From Minisyncoccota bacterium (GTDB lineage: Bacteria; Patescibacteriota; Minisyncoccia; Phycocordibacterales; UBA9973), in the NCBI GenBank assembly GCA_041657445.1, contig JBBABV010000002.1, positions 3,364 to 67,363 on the forward strand: a stretch of DNA of 64,000 bases, read 5' to 3'. A program made the translations under genes and the position numbers. A model generated the notes under the pieces. The model was not told the origin of the DNA, did no database searches, and saw only the letters and a list, made by a program, of their open reading frames with translations. This document shows positions 44,001 through 64,000 of the stretch, piece by piece; position 1 is the stretch's first letter, and each line of letters starts with the position of its first letter.

Positions 44001-44093
44001 AAACAACAAAAGAACAGGACTATTATCGTCCATATTACTATGTTTTGCCTTATTTTTCAATTGTTATACCGATTAGTACTTTTTAAACCTTTG

Positions 44094-44371
44094 CGCGGCT
44101 GATGGGTGCTGACCCCACGACCTCTCCCGTGCACTGATCCAATATTTTCATAAAGGCGTGGACTATATCTTCACCTTGCCAAAAAAGGTTTAGGTGCTCC
44201 TGTATCTAGTCTCTACGGTGCCCCCAGCCTTATGCTAGGGTTCCCACGGTATTAGCATATCTAATAAGACTTAGCCTTCACCGTTATCCAGGAGAGTTTC
44301 AATCCGCCATTTCGACGAAAAGCTGCAATTTGTGCTCACAGGGGAGTATTCTACCGTTGAACTACAGCCGC
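44094..44371 (-). tRNA. tRNA-Asp (anticodon GUC) interrupted in the anticodon loop by a 206-nt group I intron (~44132-44337). 5' exon 44338-44371, 3' exon 44094-44131.
   Basis: Exons are GCGGCUGUAGUUCAACGGUAGAAUACUCCCCUGU | CACGGGAGAGGUCGUGGGGUCAGCACCCAUCAGCCGCG, which closely matches bacterial tRNA-Asp. The 5' exon ends in U and the intron ends in G. Confidence 0.7.
44132..44337 (-). mobile_element. Group I intron (no ORF) in tRNA-Asp
   Basis: Minus-sense core elements in the correct order: P-like ...CCGUGGGAA (44241-44253), R-like UAGAGACUAGA (44205-44220), S AAGAUAUAGUCC (44158-44175). Confidence 0.65.
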
Positions 44372-45039
44372 TTTTTTATATACTCTTCAAATACATCTTT
44401 TTTCCTACCAAGGAACAACCCTGATGTACTTATCCTATTATACATAAAATAATATAATTTCAAAGCATTTATAGTACTATATTGTAGGCGACAAAACTCT
44501 CTCATTTTTGACCTATAAATACATCCTCCCTCTAATCCAAAAAAGTTAAGTTCAGTATGAAGTCTTTTAATAAATTCATACGAGCATGAAGTAAATGTCA
44601 ACTATAATACGAGGTGTGTTGTTTTTCTATTTTTATGAACCCTACCCATCCAGATATTTCCATCACCATCAAAATATCCCCTGACAAAATAAGAAAAATA
44701 TTCCTTAGGAATATTTGGAATAGCTAAGCTTTTTGTTTTCCTTTAAGTAAAACCAAGTTCCCTTAAATCACTACACATTTCTTTATTACCAATTTGTAAT
44801 CTATAGATAATACTTGATTTTGCATTCTTAGGTACCCTAATATTTATTTGATGCTCAGATTCAATCTCTTCTTTAATACTATATATTAAATCTTTATCAG
44901 TTGTCTGTATACACCAGTATTCTCCTCCTCTTTTGTTTACAGTTATGTATCCGTCTGCGGTAAAAAATCCTAGAATGTAGAACATTTCTCTCGTCCATTT
45001 TTTGAAAAAATCTTTGTTTATTTTCTTTTGTATTGGCAT
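44362..45039 (-). pseudogene. Decayed free-standing LAGLIDADG homing endonuclease gene, split into two ORFs (44743-45039 N-part, 44362-44601 C-part)
   Basis: The N-part has the canonical motif ILGFFTADGYITV. The C-part has a degenerate second motif LNFFGLEGGCI. The two are separated by a gap or frame break. Confidence 0.55.
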
Positions 45040-45069: not shown

Positions 45070-45143
45070 TTATTTACTGTGTCGACGCCAGGATTTGCAC
45101 CTGGGACCTGCACTTTATGAGTGTGCCGCTCTAACTACCTGAG
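45070..45143 (-). tRNA. tRNA with a CAU anticodon (elongator Met, or Ile2/lysidine type)
   Basis: Acceptor GUCGGCG/CGUCGAC, D-arm GCUC-AGGUAGUU-GAGC, anticodon loop CUCAUAA, T-arm CCAGG-UGCAAAU-CCUGG. Confidence 0.75.
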
Positions 45144-45229
45144 CTACGCCGACATACTAAAACCTTATTAAATATAACTTAAGAAAGTTTTGTTTGCAAA
45201 TAATGAAAAAAATGTATATACTGCAACAT

Positions 45230-45531
45230 AGCGGGGTGGAGAAGTGGTATCTCACAAGGCTCGACATAATGGGCCCCTCAATAGGAAACTATTGAGTTCG
45301 CATTTGCCAAATTCGGGGAAGTCCTCCCTTGTAATTTTTACAAGAAAGATAATCCCGAGCTAAACCTCACTAATCAGTGAGAAAATGTGTAGAGACTAGA
45401 TGGCAAACTCCTTAATTCTTTATTAAAGAAAAGGAGATGGGATAGTCCAGACCACAAATTCATAGTGATGTAGTGAAAACTATAGTGGTAAGCATAACCT
45501 TGAGACAGCCGTTCGAATCGGCTCCCCGCAA
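45230..45531 (+). tRNA. CAU-anticodon tRNA (Met; possibly the initiator, given A1·A72) interrupted after U33 by a 231-nt group I intron (45262-45492). 5' exon 45230-45261, 3' exon 45493-45531.
   Basis: Exons are AGCGGGGUGGAGAAGUGGUAUCUCACAAGGCU | CAUAACCUUGAGACAGCCGUUCGAAUCGGCUCCCCGCAA. Anticodon stem CAAGG/CCUUG, T-arm AGCCG-UUCGAAU-CGGCU, acceptor GCGGGG/CCCCGC. Confidence 0.65.
45262..45492 (+). mobile_element. Group I intron (no ORF) in the CAU tRNA
   Basis: Plus-sense P AAUUCGGGGAAGUCC, Q AAUCCCGAGC, R GUGUAGAGACUAGA, S GAUGGGAUAGUCCAG in canonical order. The intron ends in G. Confidence 0.65.
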
Positions 45532-57923: not shown

Positions 57924-58038
<115 letters not shown>

Positions 58039-58369
58039 AACATTCAATTTATTAATACAAATTTTTAATAAACATGTATAATATATGAATTTTTATGAAA
58101 ATATCTTAAATGTGTTTTTTATACATTATAAGTTTTGTGAATTATTATGATTTCCAAATTTCTTAACAGGAATCGAACAATTAGTACTTCTCAGCTCTAC
58201 ACATTACTGTGCTTACACTTAAAGCCTATCAACCTGATCATCTCTCAGGGTTCTAAACGATTCCTCATCTTGAAGATGGCTTCCCTCTTAGATGCTTTCA
58301 GAGGTTATCCATTCCCGACATAGCTACCGAGCAGTCCACTTGGCAGTAGAGCTCGTACACCAGAGGTCA

Positions 58370-58400
<31 letters not shown>

Positions 58401-58460
58401 ATCTTCTCAAGAATCAACGAGTGCAGTAGATAGGAGACCAACCTGTCTCACGCATGTTTT

Positions 58461-59694
58461 CACACATTACTGTATGCATTGGACTATACTTTCCCTATAA
58501 TACAGGGGTCGGTTTGTAGTCTCTACAAAGAACAAAAGTTCTTCTCGGTATTGTCCTCCACTTATAATGGATGGGATTTTACCGATAACCCCGACTTATT
58601 CTTTATTTTTAAATAAAGACCGCCGTGATTTGATTGGTTACTCTATCTTTTTAACAAACGAAAAAACTTCTTAATAACAGTATTTTATAATTTCTCTTAG
58701 GATTCAGATTGTGGAATAGTCGTTTATATTACTAAAAACAACTTCTCCACGGTCTGACATTTAATCCATTATTACTAATGGTACTGACTATACCTTTTCC
58801 AAAACTTTCCTGCCTTGGAACTGACGTGTTAGCAAGCATGTCGCTCGCTCTGTCTATTTACTAGACAAGTCGATACGGGGATTATCAATCTTATAAGTCA
58901 TTGATGGGGCGATAAATGGAGAAACTATTGAGAGAAAAAGATTGTAATATTCTTTTCCAATTGCAATTTTCCATTGATTTCTATCTTTTACTATTGTCGC
59001 AGATATATTATATTTCTTTTTTAGAAAATCAACAATTATTTCTTGATCTTCATAAGAAAACGAATGTGTACTTAAAGTCACATTACTGTGATTATTTGAA
59101 CCATCATCCATATACCATATCGCTAACATTCTATCAGAAAAAATAGGAAGTACTTCTTTTGGAAATATTTTCACATTATCTTTATAAAAGATTTTATGTA
59201 TAATTCCAAATCCTTCCAAACTTCTCGTATGAAAGTACCATGATATTTCTTTAAGATTTCTTTTTCTATTTGTCCATGAAATTTTTCTTGGACTAGAAGA
59301 AACAAAACTCTTTAATATTTCATACTTCCACCAGACATAATCTTTTTGTTTTTCGCCATGATGCACACGAAATCGAGCTGTTAAAACACCCCTAATTCCA
59401 TTTGACCTGCACTCAAGCCGTGCATCTCCTAACAACGACCCTATAATCACATCTAGCTGATGTGATGGAAATGTTGATTGTAATCTTCCCACGATATTAT
59501 CCATTATGTGTATTTTATCACACACAACCGGACTTCACCGTTATGAGTCAGTTTATTTTTTATCTCTTTTTTATTTTGACAAGCGAGGAGCGAGTGAAAA
59601 TAATAATTTTCACTTCGTCCGAGCGAAGTCAAACTATGGATTTTAATAAATCCATGTCCTCGTAGAAAGTCATTAGCTGGGCTCATGAATCCTT
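58461..59694 (-). mobile_element. Group I intron A in 23S, near the site equivalent to E. coli ~L2585-2593, carrying a LAGLIDADG gene
   Basis: 5' exon ends ...GAGCUGGGU. The 3' end has P-like, R GUAGAGACUACA, S AGUAUAGUCC, and a P9 CAUACA-GUAA-UGUGUG hairpin, then an omega G before AAAACAUGCGUGAGACAGG. Confidence 0.55.
58854..59525 (-). CDS. LAGLIDADG homing endonuclease, double-motif, intron-encoded
   Basis: Two motifs, VIIGSLLGDARLE and AIWYMDDGSNN. 223 aa. Confidence 0.8.
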   Translation of the reverse strand: MCDKIHIMDNIVGRLQSTFPSHQLDVIIGSLLGDARLECRSNGIRGVLTARFRVHHGEKQKDYVWWKYEILKSFVSSSPRKISWTNRKRNLKEISWYFHTRSLEGFGIIHKIFYKDNVKIFPKEVLPIFSDRMLAIWYMDDGSNNHSNVTLSTHSFSYEDQEIIVDFLKKKYNISATIVKDRNQWKIAIGKEYYNLFLSIVSPFIAPSMTYKIDNPRIDLSSK

Positions 59695-59774
59695 ACCCAG
59701 CTCGCGTACCTTTTTAATTGGCGAACAGCCAAACGCTTGGGAGCTTCTCCGCCCCCGCGCTAAGGTGAGCCGAC

Positions 59775-60301
59775 CACTTATTTACATGCAATGAAACCAT
59801 TGCAAAACCATTATTACTAATGGTGCAGACTATACCTTTATATTAGATTTGTTCTAAATATACCAGCGTCTTATAACAATGTTTATATTGTTATCTTCAT
59901 TTTATTCTGTAATTCTTACAGATACAAAAATCCAGTCGTTACGGGGTTATGAAAGTCCTATCTTATATCTCATAGATTTGATGATATAAGGACAAATTAG
60001 GTCAACAAGTTTTTGAGTCTCTTTTTTATTGCAATATATTCTATAACCTTTATCTCTATCTTTGTAAGACAACATAGATATGTTAAATTTATTCTTAACA
60101 ATAAAACAAAGTTTCTCAATCTCTTGTAGAGTAAAAGAATAAGCATTTTCTTATTCCAATATTTACTTTCTAAACTTCCCACGGTGTTGACCATATATAA
60201 CGCGAATTATATCATGGCTTTCTCCGTTATGAGCTGATTTAATACATAAATTTATGTATGAGAGAATTGTTCAGACTCTCTCTCCTCGACATTCGGTGTT
60301 T
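59775..60301 (-). mobile_element. Group I intron B in 23S at the L2500-equivalent site (between CUCGAU and GUCGGCUC), with a decayed ORF remnant at 59997-60194
   Basis: 5' exon ends GGCACCUCGAU. The intron ends ...S-like AAGGUAUAGUCUG plus a P9 CCAUUA-GUAA-UAAUGG, then G, then GUCGGCUC. Confidence 0.55.
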
Positions 60302-60555
60302 ATCGAGGTGCCGAACTCCGCCGTCGATATGAACTCTTAGGCGGAACTAGCCTGTTATCCCTAGAGTAGCTTTTATCCGTTAATCTTCCACCACATCTAA
60401 TGTGTATGGTCGGTTCACTATGTTCTGGTTTCCCACCTGCTTGGGATGTACCCCTCACAGTCAAGCCAGCTTGTGCCATTACACTATCGGCACGGTTTCC
60501 ATTCGCGCCTAGCTGACCTTTAAACCCCTCCTTTACTTTTTAGGCTCTTTGTTAA

Positions 60556-60922
60556 CTGCATATCGCTATGCAGGACGGACTATACATTCATCCTTTTTAG
60601 GATGGCTGGTTTGTAGTCTCTACGGGTGATCTATTTAATATAAGTAACAAATATTACTATTAAAAGAAAGAAAATTTTGATTATCTCTAATTTCTTCTAA
60701 CAACTTAATAATTTTTTCATTATTATCCGTGCACTATATTATAGTCTTTCCCTCGGTGTTGTCCACTTGGGATTTCACCGATATTCCCAACTTTTTTCAA
60801 TCACGATTGATCGTGAAAGCCCCCCTTGTATTTATTTTTTCTGCAGGTGGATTATACCTGCCTGAGGCTGCAAAGTTCGAGGATTCGAATAAAATAAAAT
60901 CTTATTTCAAGTCCTCGAGGGT
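60556..60922 (-). mobile_element. Group I intron D in 23S (no ORF), near the E. coli ~2200-equivalent region
   Basis: 5' exon ...UUUUACUGGGGCUGU. The intron carries P-like (60763-60777), R GUAGAGACUACAAACC, S AUGUAUAGUCCG, and a P9 CUGCAUA-GCGA-UAUGCAG, then UUAACAAAGAGCC. Confidence 0.5.
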
Positions 60923-61228
60923 ACAGCCCCAGTAAAACTATCCACCAGATACTGTCTCAATGCGTTTTTTCCGCACAGGTTAGAACATGCCTTCAAAAAG
61001 AATGGTATTTCACTGTTGAGTAGATTTCAGCCGAAACCGAAAACATCAGACCTCTCCCATCTATTCTACGCAGTTTAAAAACATGCTCAATATCAAGTTA
61101 TAGTAAAGCTTCTAGGGTCTTTTCGTCTAACTGCACTTAACCGGCATCTTCACCGGTATTGTATTTTCACCGAGCTGGTCCCCGAGACAGTTCTCCGGTC
61201 ATTACACCATTCGTGCGCGTCGGAACTT

Positions 61229-61971
61229 CATGTATTTACATTACTTAATCTCCAAAAATGGAGAGCAAAACCCACTATTACTAGTGGCACAGACTATATC
61301 TTCATCTCAATGCATTTTGAATATCTTTCTTTGAATACTTTCTTTTTCCACTTGGATTCATTTGAAAAACTAAATCTAAAATCTTTTTTAATCCGTTCTT
61401 ATTCTTGTGCATATTTTTTTGCATAAGAAAACAAACTTCTTTAAAACGATTAAAGTCATTCTGTTTCTCTGAAATCAAAGGGTGTTTTTCAAAATGAGGA
61501 ATTATTTTACTGATTAGGTTTTCCAAACTTCTCACTTCATATTTAAGTGTTTTGTCTGAATAATCTCTTCTGATAAAACCACATTGAAAAATGTTTTGCA
61601 TCAGGAAAAGAATTTGTGCTCTATCTTCATTTTGACTGACAGAAAAACTTGGTTTGGTTTCCCAGCCCAGAGTTAGTTTGTCTCGCTTTGAAAAAGAAAC
61701 ACTAAAGCATCCTTCTCCATCCACATATCCTGAAATATATTCTTGTATATTATGCTTTTTTATATTGAGAGCCGGCATGTTATAGATTATAACAATAATC
61801 TATCTAGGTCGCCACTATACAGAGGCGACCTAAGTCGTTACGGGGTCACTATAATTTGATTATAGGACTTCCCACGGTATTGTCCTTAATTACTTTCGCA
61901 CTTTCATTAAGGATTCCACCGTTATAAGCCGGATTTAATCCGAAAATCACTCTTCGGATGGGCAGTTCTCT
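61229..61971 (-). mobile_element. Group I intron C in 23S at the L1917-1931-equivalent region (GUCGGGU|AAGUUCCGAC), carrying a LAGLIDADG gene
   Basis: Exon junction reconstitutes GUCGGGUAAGUUCCGAC. P-like CAAUACCGUGGGAAGUC, Q-like CCCCGUAACGAC, S AAGAUAUAGUCUG plus a P9 CCACUA-GUAA-UAGUGG. Confidence 0.55.
61302..61778 (-). CDS. LAGLIDADG homing endonuclease, single-motif, intron-encoded
   Basis: Motif ISGYVDGEGCFSVSF. 158 aa. Confidence 0.8.
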   Translation of the reverse strand: MPALNIKKHNIQEYISGYVDGEGCFSVSFSKRDKLTLGWETKPSFSVSQNEDRAQILFLMQNIFQCGFIRRDYSDKTLKYEVRSLENLISKIIPHFEKHPLISEKQNDFNRFKEVCFLMQKNMHKNKNGLKKILDLVFQMNPSGKRKYSKKDIQNALR

Positions 61972-61991
61972 ACCCGACAAGGTATTTCGCT

Positions 61992-62205
61992 CTAGTCACC
62001 TGTAAAAACTAGGACTCTATCTTCATCCTCTTTCGTAAGAAAGTAGGATGCATGGCGTTGGTCTCTTGTTAACCATGATTGGATTCTCATACATTACTGC
62101 ATAAGTAGGTAGCGTTTTTGTGTAATTTTTCTGTTTACTTTTCCTACAACAGTCCCAATCCTTTTTGACTCATTATTACAACACATATTGTAAAATATGT
62201 CAAAA
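61992..62205 (-). mobile_element. Small (214-nt) group I intron E in 23S between GGUCCUAAGGU and AGCGAAAUACC (L1900-equivalent region)
   Basis: Splits the otherwise contiguous CUAAGGUAGCGAAAU. R-like CAAGAGACCAAC and S-like AAGAUAGAGUCCUAG. The intron ends in G. Confidence 0.5.
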
Positions 62206-62240
<35 letters not shown>

Positions 62241-64000
62241 CAGGGCTTATATCAGTCTGCATATCACATTGCTGTAATACACCGCCGATATTTGACCTTC
62301 TGGCATTGGTCAGGTGTCACCCCCTATACATCCTCTTACCGAGTTCGCAGGGAGCTGTGTTTTTGGTAAACAGTTGCCAGAGATACTTTCGCTGCGGCCC
62401 TCTAAATAAATAGAGGGCAAGCCTTATCCCGAAGTTACGGCTGCTTTTTTGCCGAGTTCCTTGGGGACCACTCACTCGTTCGTCTTGGTCTACTCGACCT
62501 GATCACCTGTGTCGGTTTGCGGTACGGATTCTATATTCATAAGTTTAGAGATTTTTCTTGGAAGTGTGCTTTGCATTATCATCCTCAGCCGAAACTGAAA
62601 ACTTTTCATTTCTCTTGGAATTGCTATTTAAAGCAGTGTACGGATTTACCTATACAACATCCTTAAGAAACAAACTTCAAATCCAATAATGAGCAATGCA
62701 TACTACACTCCGTCATCCCATCACAAAATACAGAAGTCAGGGAATATTAACCCTGTGTCCATCGGGTACGGATTTCTCCATCCCCTTAGGCCCGACTAAC
62801 CCTTGGCTGATTGACATTACCAAGGAAACCTTGATCTTTCGACGGTGGGCGTTCTCAACCCACTTGCGGTTACTTGTGCCAACATTCTTACTTCCACACA
62901 CTCCAGAGGCCCTCACGGGTCCTCCTTCACTGCTTTGGATTGCTCTCACGAACAATCCGAGTGGAACACTCTCCTACCACTCGTGAACTTCATAGAGGAG
63001 CCAACAATAATTATATTGTTGGCAGAAAAATTAAATAATTTCGGTTGGGGTGAAACATTTTAAATGCTTGATTAATGTTCCACATCCTAAAGTGATCTCT
63101 CCAATACAAGAGAGCGAGCTCAAGAATTTGAGCACTTTAGAACTCAAAAATACAATAGAAAAAAATTAGCATTCTGTTTTGTATTTCTGACCCAAAACTT
63201 AATAAAGAACAAATAACTGAGGCTGACTGTAAATTTTACAGTTTTTCTCCTTTTCCCAATAGGAGAACTTCAATACAATATCAGCCAGCCTTCAGCAAAA
63301 ACATTTCCTCTATGAAATTCACGAATCCTCAAATTCGGTATCATACTTAGCCCCAATTATTTTCGACGCAAAATCTCTGGATGAGTGAGCTGTTACGCTA
63401 TCTTTAAAGGATGGCTGCTTCTAAGCCAACCTCCTCATTGTCAGAGAAATTTCACCTTCTTATTTTACACTTAGTATGAATTTAGGGACCTTATTTAGAG
63501 ATCTGGGCTGTTTCCCTTTTCACCTGTGGAGCTTAGCCCCCACGGTGTAACTGCCGTGCTTTAACTTCTGGTATTCGGAGTTTGATAGGTTTCGCGAGAT
63601 TGCTCCCTGTCGAAACCTTCCAGTGCTCTACCCCCAGAAAGAAACACACGACGCTAGCCCTAAAGCTATTTCGGAGAGAACCAGCTATTACCAGGTTCGA
63701 TTAGCTTTTCACTCCTTACCACAAGTCATCCCAACGCGTTGTACGACGAACGGGTTCGGACCTCCATTTCACTTTCGCAAAACTTCATCCTGCTCATGGC
63801 AAGCTCACCTGGCTTCGGGTCTTATGCATACTACTTAATCGCGCTATTAACACTCGGTTTCCCTGTGGCTTCATGGTTCTCCCATTTAACCTTGCAGTAT
63901 GAATAAACTCGTTGGCTCATTCTTCAATAGGCACGCCGTAGCAGAGTAAACTCTGCATCGACTCCTTGTAGACATATGGTTTCAGGTCTATTTCACCGCC

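Follow-up and report, generated by a model that had tools for sequence, protein, structure and literature searches.

A putative initiator tRNA gene of a Minisyncoccota bacterium interrupted by a small group I intron of the tRNA-fMet intron family

In a 64,000-nucleotide (nt) stretch of the genome of a Minisyncoccota bacterium (GenBank assembly GCA_041657445.1, contig JBBABV010000002.1, positions 3,364–67,363 of the forward strand), hereafter the window, a gene that very probably encodes the initiator tRNA (tRNA-fMet) is interrupted between U33 and C34 by a 231-nt group I intron. The intron lacks an open reading frame (ORF) and belongs to the tRNA-fMet group I intron family originally known from cyanobacteria; this overall reading is given a probability of about 0.9. 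Self-splicing of the intron, use of a promoter-like site upstream of the gene and formylation of the charged product are predicted from sequence.

Results

Gene layout and splice junction

Joining window positions 45230–45261 and 45493–45531 of the plus strand yielded a 71-nt tRNA(CAU) cloverleaf (D-loop, 7 nt; variable loop, 4 nt), which ARAGORN called as tRNA-Met(CAU) with seven acceptor positions and a·a at 1:72. On the intact window the interrupted gene was missed by the same program, which called only a tRNA-Gln, two tRNA-Thr, and one tRNA-Met(CAU). Exon 1, read from the window sequence as AGCGGGGUGGAGAAGUGGUAUCUCACAAGGCU, ends ...GGCU, while exon 2, read as CAUAACCUUGAGACAGCCGUUCGAAUCGGCUCCCCGCAA, begins CAUAACC and ends at A73; the CCA end is not encoded, the bases after exon 2 being CAUUU (Table 1). 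The exon boundaries and the call on the joined exons confirm what a first-pass annotation of the window had proposed for this locus with respect to coordinates, intron length (231 nt), CAU anticodon, insertion after U33, and the A1·A72 mismatch. Promoter-like sites in the region numbered 10, compared to 5.8 ± 2.5 in shuffled sequences, and the candidate promoter of the gene is a consensus match alone.

The splice site is ambiguous by 1 nt, as C is the first base of both the intron and exon 2, but both the rules for group I introns (U-1·G wobble, ωG) and the T at the start of one intron of the family (L067) place the junction at U33|C34. Metagenome contigs were also scanned for uninterrupted genes of the window-type tRNA, and 60 loci were recovered. 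One metagenome contig, L163, is syntenic with the window, having a 217-amino acid (aa) ORF and GatA in common with it, and carries tRNA-Asp, tRNA-Met, and tRNA-fMet genes that are all intronless. Its tRNA-fMet gene, identical to exon 1 in its 5' half, is one T-loop base off the predicted spliced product and also possesses A1·A72, and a blastn alignment of the window to this contig breaks at 45262 and resumes at 45493. L163 is thus an orthologous empty site: it establishes the splice junction without recourse to a model and shows that the intron is optional among close relatives.

A second syntenic relative, the metagenome-assembled genome (MAG) ‘bacterium WY5.bin123’ (L021; GatA 73–79% aa identity), carries the same exons except for C1 in place of A1, interrupted by an intron of 225 nt. 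Identity between L021 and the window was 71% over an aligned segment of 253 nt (intron and short exon flanks), and 11 helix pairs were changed on both sides yet still paired.

Identity of the interrupted tRNA

Several features of the predicted cloverleaf support the interrupted tRNA as the initiator tRNA-fMet. In the acceptor stem (AGCGGGG/CCCCGCA) the positions from G2-C71 to G7-C66 are paired, with an A1·A72 mismatch and A73. The D stem (G10-A11-G12-A13/U22-C23-U24-C25) contains A11:U24, a purine11:pyrimidine24 combination, and the base of the anticodon stem contains G30-C40 and G31-C39 (GG/CC at 30-31/39-40). The acceptor stem of Escherichia coli tRNA-fMet is CGCGGGG, and the roles of the 1:72 mismatch, A11:U24, G2-C71/C3-G70, and A73 in initiation and formylation are established for E. 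coli. The exons align with canonical bacterial tRNA-fMet genes (CGCGGGG...GGGCU|CAUAACCC...CCCCGCA) from many phyla. An initiator had been suggested on the strength of the 1:72 mismatch, and that suggestion is borne out by the alignment with tRNA-fMet genes together with G2-C71 to G7-C66, A11:U24, A73, and GG/CC.

A1·A72 is a trait of the lineage and not an error: of the 60 intronless relatives, 28 have it, as do three intron-bearing Paceibacterota loci (L013, L048, L104). No other fMet-type gene was detected in the 64-kb window (ARAGORN; Rfam at E ≤ 1). Across the wider set of initiator genes, many have T1 with A72 or A1 with T72 (e.g., L004, L015, L023, and L040 from the Nitrospirota; L005 and L115 from the Patescibacteria), combinations that would form a Watson-Crick 1:72 pair as opposed to the textbook mismatch.

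Structure of the intron

The Rfam group I intron model (Intron_gpI, RF00028) matched positions 45252–45468 of the plus strand over its full length (model positions 1–253; 63.4 bits, gathering score 50, E = 9.7e-14), and the conserved elements P, Q, R, and S that the first-pass annotation had recognized on this strand could all be placed (Table 1). No ORF of ≥40 aa was found inside the 231-nt intron, and hence an ORF for I-Ssp6803I, the homing endonuclease of the Synechocystis tRNA-fMet intron, is absent. The 302-nt pre-tRNA folded with a z-score of -4.37 relative to shuffled sequences, and the centroid fold recovered the acceptor, D, and T arms along with P2–P6a, P8, and P9.

An alignment of 39 sequences, consisting of the window intron and 38 homologues, was strongly conserved in the core and differed in the peripheral helices. 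The named P1–P10 structure, in which P1, P10, and the P7 pseudoknot are included, was drawn from the sequence of the window and compared to controls in which the 3' partners were slid by 1–3 columns. Standard pairs occupied 90.8% of cells in the named structure and 34–42% in the slid controls, a comparison tilted toward the named structure, which comes from one of the sequences in the alignment. Counts of double changes are less exposed to this bias; 35 pairs were changed on both sides, with a covariation score of 0.381 compared to ≤0.136 in controls, and none of 500 shuffles reached 0.381. RNAalifold recovered P2, P3, P4, P5, P6, P6a, P8, P9a, and P9b; 39 of its 56 pairs showed compensatory changes. 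Overall, covariation was seen in P3, P4, P5, P7 (last pair), P8, and P9, including P4 pair 203:243 (G-C in 23 sequences, U-A in 15), P5 pair 208:238 (C-G in 33, U-A in six), and the last pair of P7 (A-U in 19, U-A in 13, G-C in five, C-G in one).

All 39 family sequences keep the U·G pair formed by U33 (45261) and the G at 45272 of the guide. Standard pairs made up 99.1% of cells for the three core pairs of P1 and 86.7% for P10, and because both helices are nearly invariant they receive no support from covariation. RNAalifold also proposed a helix between GGGC of the guide and GUCC of the P7 3' strand (columns 154–157/425–428). This helix was rejected in favor of P7 as named, which has a covarying pair, and is considered an artefact because the program cannot draw the P3/P7 pseudoknot.

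The remaining 38 sequences had 97 columns with ≥90% conservation, and the window copy matched 90 of these. The seven departures comprise a compensatory pair in P9b (two columns), a U·U in place of C-G as the third P6 pair (two columns), and single changes at a D-stem position of the exon, in J2/3, and in J8/7.

Table 1. Features of the interrupted gene, its intron, and the adjacent tRNA(CAU), in window coordinates
Feature	Coordinates	Strand	Sequence and basis
Non-initiator tRNA(CAU)	45079..45153	-	ARAGORN and Rfam tRNA (58.5 bits); divergent to tRNA-fMet, 76 nt away
Promoter-like TTGCAA-17 nt-TATACT	45194..45222	+	Consensus scan, 9/12 matches; ends 7 nt before tRNA position 1
Exon 1 of predicted tRNA-fMet, positions 1–33	45230..45261	+	AGCGGGG UG GAGA AGUGGUA UCUC A CAAGG CU; ARAGORN on joined exons
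Group I intron, 231 nt, without ORF	45262..45492	+	Starts CGACAUAAUGGGCC, ends ...UAGUGGUAAG (...UAAG); ωG = 45492
Internal guide sequence AUGGGCC	45269..45275	+	GGCC with G30-G31-C32-U33 (P1), AUG with C34-A35-U36 (P10); read from sequence
P2 hairpin	45277..45296	+	CUCAAUAG-GAAA-CUAUUGAG; double compensatory changes in 8/8 pairs across the family
P3 5' strand UUUGCC	45303..45308	+	Partner GGCAAA 45402–45407; 4/6 pairs changed on both sides, 99.6% of cells paired
Element P: J3/4 AAA and P4 5' strand	45310..45320	+	AAUUCGGGGAA; invariant or near-invariant columns in 39-sequence alignment
P5 (GUC/GAU) around P5a hairpin	45321..45350	+	P5a CUUGUAA-UUU-UUACAAG, in minimum free energy (MFE) and centroid folds
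Element Q: P4 3' strand and P6 start	45351..45360	+	AAUCCCGAGC; 39-sequence alignment and pair counts
P6a hairpin	45366..45381	+	CUCACU-AAUC-AGUGAG; MFE fold; family P6a covaries in the RNAalifold register
Element R: J6/7, P7 5' strand G-A(bulge)-GACUA, P3 3' strand	45389..45407	+	GUAGAGACUAGAUGGCAAA; GUAGAGACU invariant in 39 sequences
P8 hairpin	45408..45436	+	CUCCUU...AAGGAG; 6/6 pairs with double changes, 94.9% of cells paired
Element S: J8/7 and P7 3' strand	45437..45448	+	AUGGGAUAGUCC; AGUCCAGA invariant in alignment
P9 (ACCAC/GUGGU) and inner hairpin P9b, then AAG	45451..45489	+	P9b GUAGU-GAAA-ACUAU; double changes in 3/5 P9 pairs and 5/5 P9b pairs
Exon 2 of predicted tRNA-fMet, positions 34–73	45493..45531	+	CAU AA CCUUG AGAC AGCCG UUCGAAU CGGCU CCCCGCA A; ARAGORN on joined exons

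Homologous introns across bacteria

Using one genome per bacterial species, it was possible to scan for G directly 5' of an initiator-type 3' exon (GCATAACC-N12-13-TTCRAAT-N5-CCCCGC). At least 120 genome stretches matched this pattern (loci L002–L121), at least 89 of them with a matching tRNA-fMet 5' exon that ends in GGCU 193–789 nt upstream, placing the insertion at site 33/34 in at least 15 phylum-level groups. The introns of the family start with CAAU or CGAU and end in UAGUGGUAAG, as does the window intron, whose identity to the 38 aligned members was 60–69%. Among the matches listed, hosts assigned by record title were most often Nitrospirota (n = 19), Omnitrophota (n = 16), and Patescibacteria (n = 15), followed by Acidobacteriota (n = 6), Cyanobacteria (n = 6), Rhodothermales (n = 5), Planctomycetota (n = 4), and Gammaproteobacteria (n = 4), with smaller numbers of Chloroflexota, Methylomirabilota, Actinomycetota, Desulfobacterota, Elusimicrobiota, Bacteroidia, and others.

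Family members of ~630–660 nt hold an ORF of ~150 aa. The one such protein that was tested matched the structure of I-Ssp6803I (PDB 2OST, E = 2.2e-63) and Pfam PDDEXK_5, and homologues of 2OST are encoded by ~22 (about a quarter) of the at least 89 family introns listed. Because these longer relatives encode I-Ssp6803I homologues, the window intron can be placed as an ORF-less member of the Synechocystis tRNA-fMet intron family, in which the endonuclease is optional and an intron without an ORF still counts as a member. From the absence of a homing endonuclease it follows that the window intron may be either a stranded relic of past homing or mobilized in trans.

Three loci (L014, L052, and L080; two Patescibacteria and one Gammaproteobacteria MAG) carry an intron with an antisense ORF of ~155 aa that has no Pfam match. 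About 30 pattern matches lacked a 5' exon (e.g., in Alphaproteobacteria, Actinomycetota, and Chloroflexota) and were set aside as probably not introns. A scan of viral sequences with the same pattern returned only three viral contigs (L182–L184), all without a 5' exon, and no phage-borne intron-containing tRNA-fMet gene was found. These matches without a 5' exon, both the three viral contigs and the ~30 genomes, have the appearance of tRNA 3' ends that were duplicated where an element integrated.

Neighboring tRNA genes and mobile elements

The second tRNA(CAU) near the interrupted gene is not an initiator, as it possesses G1-C72 and C11-G24, both elongator-type, and it may be either the elongator tRNA-Met or tRNA-Ile2. 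Its presence and its non-initiator character had been anticipated; its position had been given as 90 nt upstream and requires correction, as the gene lies on the minus strand, divergent, at a distance of 76 nt. The fMet/Met/Asp cluster of the window recurs in L021, L163, L123, and L138. Two of the tRNA genes possess unusual T-loops, UGCAAAU in the tRNA(CAU) at 45079–45153 (-), with G at the expected universal U55, and GUCAGCA in tRNA-Asp at 44094–44131 (-).

The tRNA-Asp(GUC) gene at 44093–44371 (-) is itself interrupted, by a 206-nt group I intron at 44132–44337 that lies inside the anticodon after U35. ARAGORN calls the joined exons as Asp, and the Rfam group I model matched the intron at 42.7 bits, below the gathering score and only when the small region was searched alone. 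A whole copy of the interrupted tRNA-Asp gene with 82.5% identity occurs in L013 (Ca. Paceibacterota), with a partial match in L178, and the gene is intronless in L021, L163, L104, and L177. Between the tRNA(CAU) and tRNA-Asp lies a free-standing gene for a double-motif LAGLIDADG endonuclease (44362–45039, -), which is broken by two in-frame stops (TAA at 44743–44745 and TAG near 44602) and whose first fragment matches Pfam LAGLIDADG_3. Homologues with 44–65% aa identity lie directly upstream of tRNA-Asp in L104, L171, L177, and L178, and the gene is absent in L021, L163, and L013. All four combinations of presence and absence occur, from which it follows that the endonuclease and the Asp intron move independently. 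The arrangement is reminiscent of free-standing endonucleases working jointly with introns that lack an ORF.

Several insertions split the 23S rRNA gene (58035–64000, -). One of ~950 nt lies between 61157 and 62106, one of 386 nt within domain V, and others precede the 5S gene. LAGLIDADG ORFs are present in two of the insertions (61302–61778, LAGLIDADG_1; 58854–59525, LAGLIDADG_2), and none of the 23S insertions was matched by Rfam intron models at E ≤ 1. These LAGLIDADG-bearing rRNA insertions, a GC content of ~33%, and nearest labelled relatives among the Paceibacterota/Patescibacteria fit a host from the Patescibacteria/CPR.

Discussion

The arrangement of the locus allows a splicing pathway to be proposed. 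A precursor of ~300 nt would be transcribed, probably from the promoter-like site that ends 7 nt upstream, and the guide 5'-AUGGGCC-3' would pair with the anticodon-loop region, GGCC with G30-G31-C32-U33 as P1 and AUG with C34-A35-U36 as P10. The U33·G wobble in P1 would mark the 5' splice site, and an external guanosine bound in P7 would attack after U33. The freed 3'-OH of U33 would then attack after ωG (45492), so that GGCU and CAUAACC are joined and the intron is released. The tRNA would be finished by RNase P, 3' trimming, and CCA addition, followed by charging with methionine and formylation. If this is the sole initiator gene, dependence of translation initiation on splicing is plausible.

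A number of points weigh against an actively spliced initiator gene of cyanobacterial-type intron ancestry. Splicing is predicted from DNA sequence, and a second, intronless initiator gene is possible outside of the 64-kb window. The anticodon stem has only two of the three canonical G-C pairs, with A-U at 29-41 (CAAGG/CCUUG). The third P6 pair is U·U in the window copy and C-G in the family, and J8/7 base 45438 is changed from A to U relative to the family consensus. Lastly, the link to Synechocystis runs via the cyanobacterial MAG members and the I-Ssp6803I homologues. The CAAGG/CCUUG stem recurs in many tRNA-fMet genes of the intron family; AU/GC/GC anticodon stems also occur among mycoplasma and plastid initiators, and such initiators can sustain E. 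coli. Both intron departures are also found in L021, the J8/7 change being common to L021 and L058, and are for that reason considered old and tolerated.

The same departures (P6 and J8/7) could be taken as signs that the intron is a decaying, non-splicing relic within a tRNA pseudogene, with an intact tRNA-fMet gene elsewhere serving initiation, and both the missing homing endonuclease ORF and the two stop codons of the adjoining LAGLIDADG gene, which indicate that mobile elements decay at this locus, would fit such a scenario. It is nonetheless very unlikely, as the copy retains every invariant position of the core and matches the family in 90 of 97 highly conserved columns, the helices are still paired through 11 double changes relative to L021 while the exons are the same but for position 1, and the two departures themselves are common to L021. 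Small genomes of the Candidate Phyla Radiation (CPR) type usually also have single tRNA genes.

Identification of the interrupted tRNA as the elongator tRNA-Met or tRNA-Ile2(CAU) is more doubtful still. The CAU anticodon is common to all three tRNA species, the anticodon stem has only two of the three G-C pairs, and Azoarcus-type introns sit in tRNA-Ile(CAU); however, GCGGGG at acceptor positions 2–7, the 1:72 mismatch, A11:U24, and A73 constitute an initiator signature, the exons align with the CGCGGGG...CCCCGCA tRNA-fMet genes of at least 89 genomes, and the neighboring tRNA(CAU) has the elongator-type G1-C72 and C11-G24. The family, moreover, carries I-Ssp6803I, an endonuclease specific for tRNA-fMet genes (PMC1995217). 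Hardly any weight is given to a transfer-messenger RNA (tmRNA) or other tRNA-like structured RNA, which the tRNA-like ends and the size of ~300 nt might bring to mind and which the first-pass annotation had considered and dismissed. The dismissal was correct: no tmRNA was detected anywhere in the window by ARAGORN, which searches for tmRNA as well, or by Rfam at E ≤ 1, nor did Rfam place any further family over the locus; its middle matches the group I model over the full length, and the intronless orthologue in L163 is an ordinary 71-nt tRNA. The tmRNA candidate was accordingly rejected.

As an initiator tRNA gene with an ORF-less intron of the tRNA-fMet family, the locus provides a clean, delimited case of a ribozyme inside the one tRNA needed to start every protein. 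Because standard tRNA finders miss the gene, genomes of the window lineage seem to lack tRNA-fMet and may be marked as incomplete. On a much more speculative note, and with a low probability attached, the tRNA-fMet intron may be far more widespread than the literature consulted records. Should small CPR genomes retain just one initiator gene, all initiation in this organism would pass through a guanosine- and Mg2+-dependent ribozyme whose guide reads the anticodon in the manner of an AUG codon. The intron could then couple the supply of initiator to nucleotide or ion status and would not be neutral.

Comparison with known systems

A tRNA-fMet group I intron was described in 1994 by Biniszkiewicz, Cesnaviciene & Shub in cyanobacteria, including Synechocystis PCC 6803, Gloeobacter, Dermocarpa, and Scytonema (PMC11622646, PMC8450103, PMC3610870). 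The Synechocystis 6803 intron is 655 nt, contains a 150-codon ORF for the homing endonuclease I-Ssp6803I (PMC1995217, PMC11622646), and is placed ‘within the anticodon loop’ (PMC11622646); among the original three genera, I-Ssp6803I is reported for Synechocystis alone. The cyanobacterial and window introns share the host gene, the initiator tRNA, and the cyanobacterial MAG members (L018, L028, L074, L090, L092, L120) have the same insertion site, after U33 and with G before CAUAACC. The ribozyme core of the cyanobacterial family is alignable with that of the window at 60–69% identity, with the same intron ends, and in both lineages the intron is sporadic among relatives. In contrast to Synechocystis, the window intron is 231 nt and has no I-Ssp6803I ORF, and in contrast to the cyanobacteria its host is a low-GC member of the Patescibacteria/CPR with A1·A72, not C1·A72, in the tRNA, which also differs in its D-loop (7 nt) and variable loop (4 nt).

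The introns of Azoarcus sp. BH72 tRNA-Ile(CAU) and Agrobacterium tRNA-Arg(CCU) (subgroup IC3), reportedly described by Reinhold-Hurek & Shub in 1992, are likewise small (~200 nt), ORF-less, and located in the anticodon loop, with the same compact P2–P9 architecture as the window intron and, for Azoarcus, the same CAU anticodon, a likeness by description. The Azoarcus intron follows the anticodon, its 5' exon ending ...CAU, and thus lies 3' of the anticodon whereas the window intron lies 5' of it, and the host tRNA species differs. The intron within the anticodon U-AA represents another tRNA and another insertion site, though in both cases the substrate helix includes pairing of the exon's anticodon stem; the literature treats it as ancient with vertical descent and the fMet intron as spread by lateral transfer (PMC4033280).

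Failure of tRNA finders at such genes has precedent. The tRNAscan-SE 2.0 paper noted that fMet or Ile2 genes went undetected in 36 genomes owing to group I introns (PMC8450103), and Lui et al. (2021) noted group I introns in CPR tRNA genes (PMC8172020), cases in which, as with ARAGORN on the window, the gene is missed through its intron. In the literature searched, the fMet intron in Patescibacteria, Nitrospira, and Omnitrophica is the subject of passing remarks only, and the breadth of the family across phyla is wider than that found in the searchable literature, which is weak evidence of novelty. PMC8450103 and PMC8172020 are without a locus-level description for the CPR, compared to which the window locus is fully delimited, with an orthologous empty site. 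The arrangement itself has been known since 1994, and the window locus adds one member to the family without altering the understanding of how such introns work.

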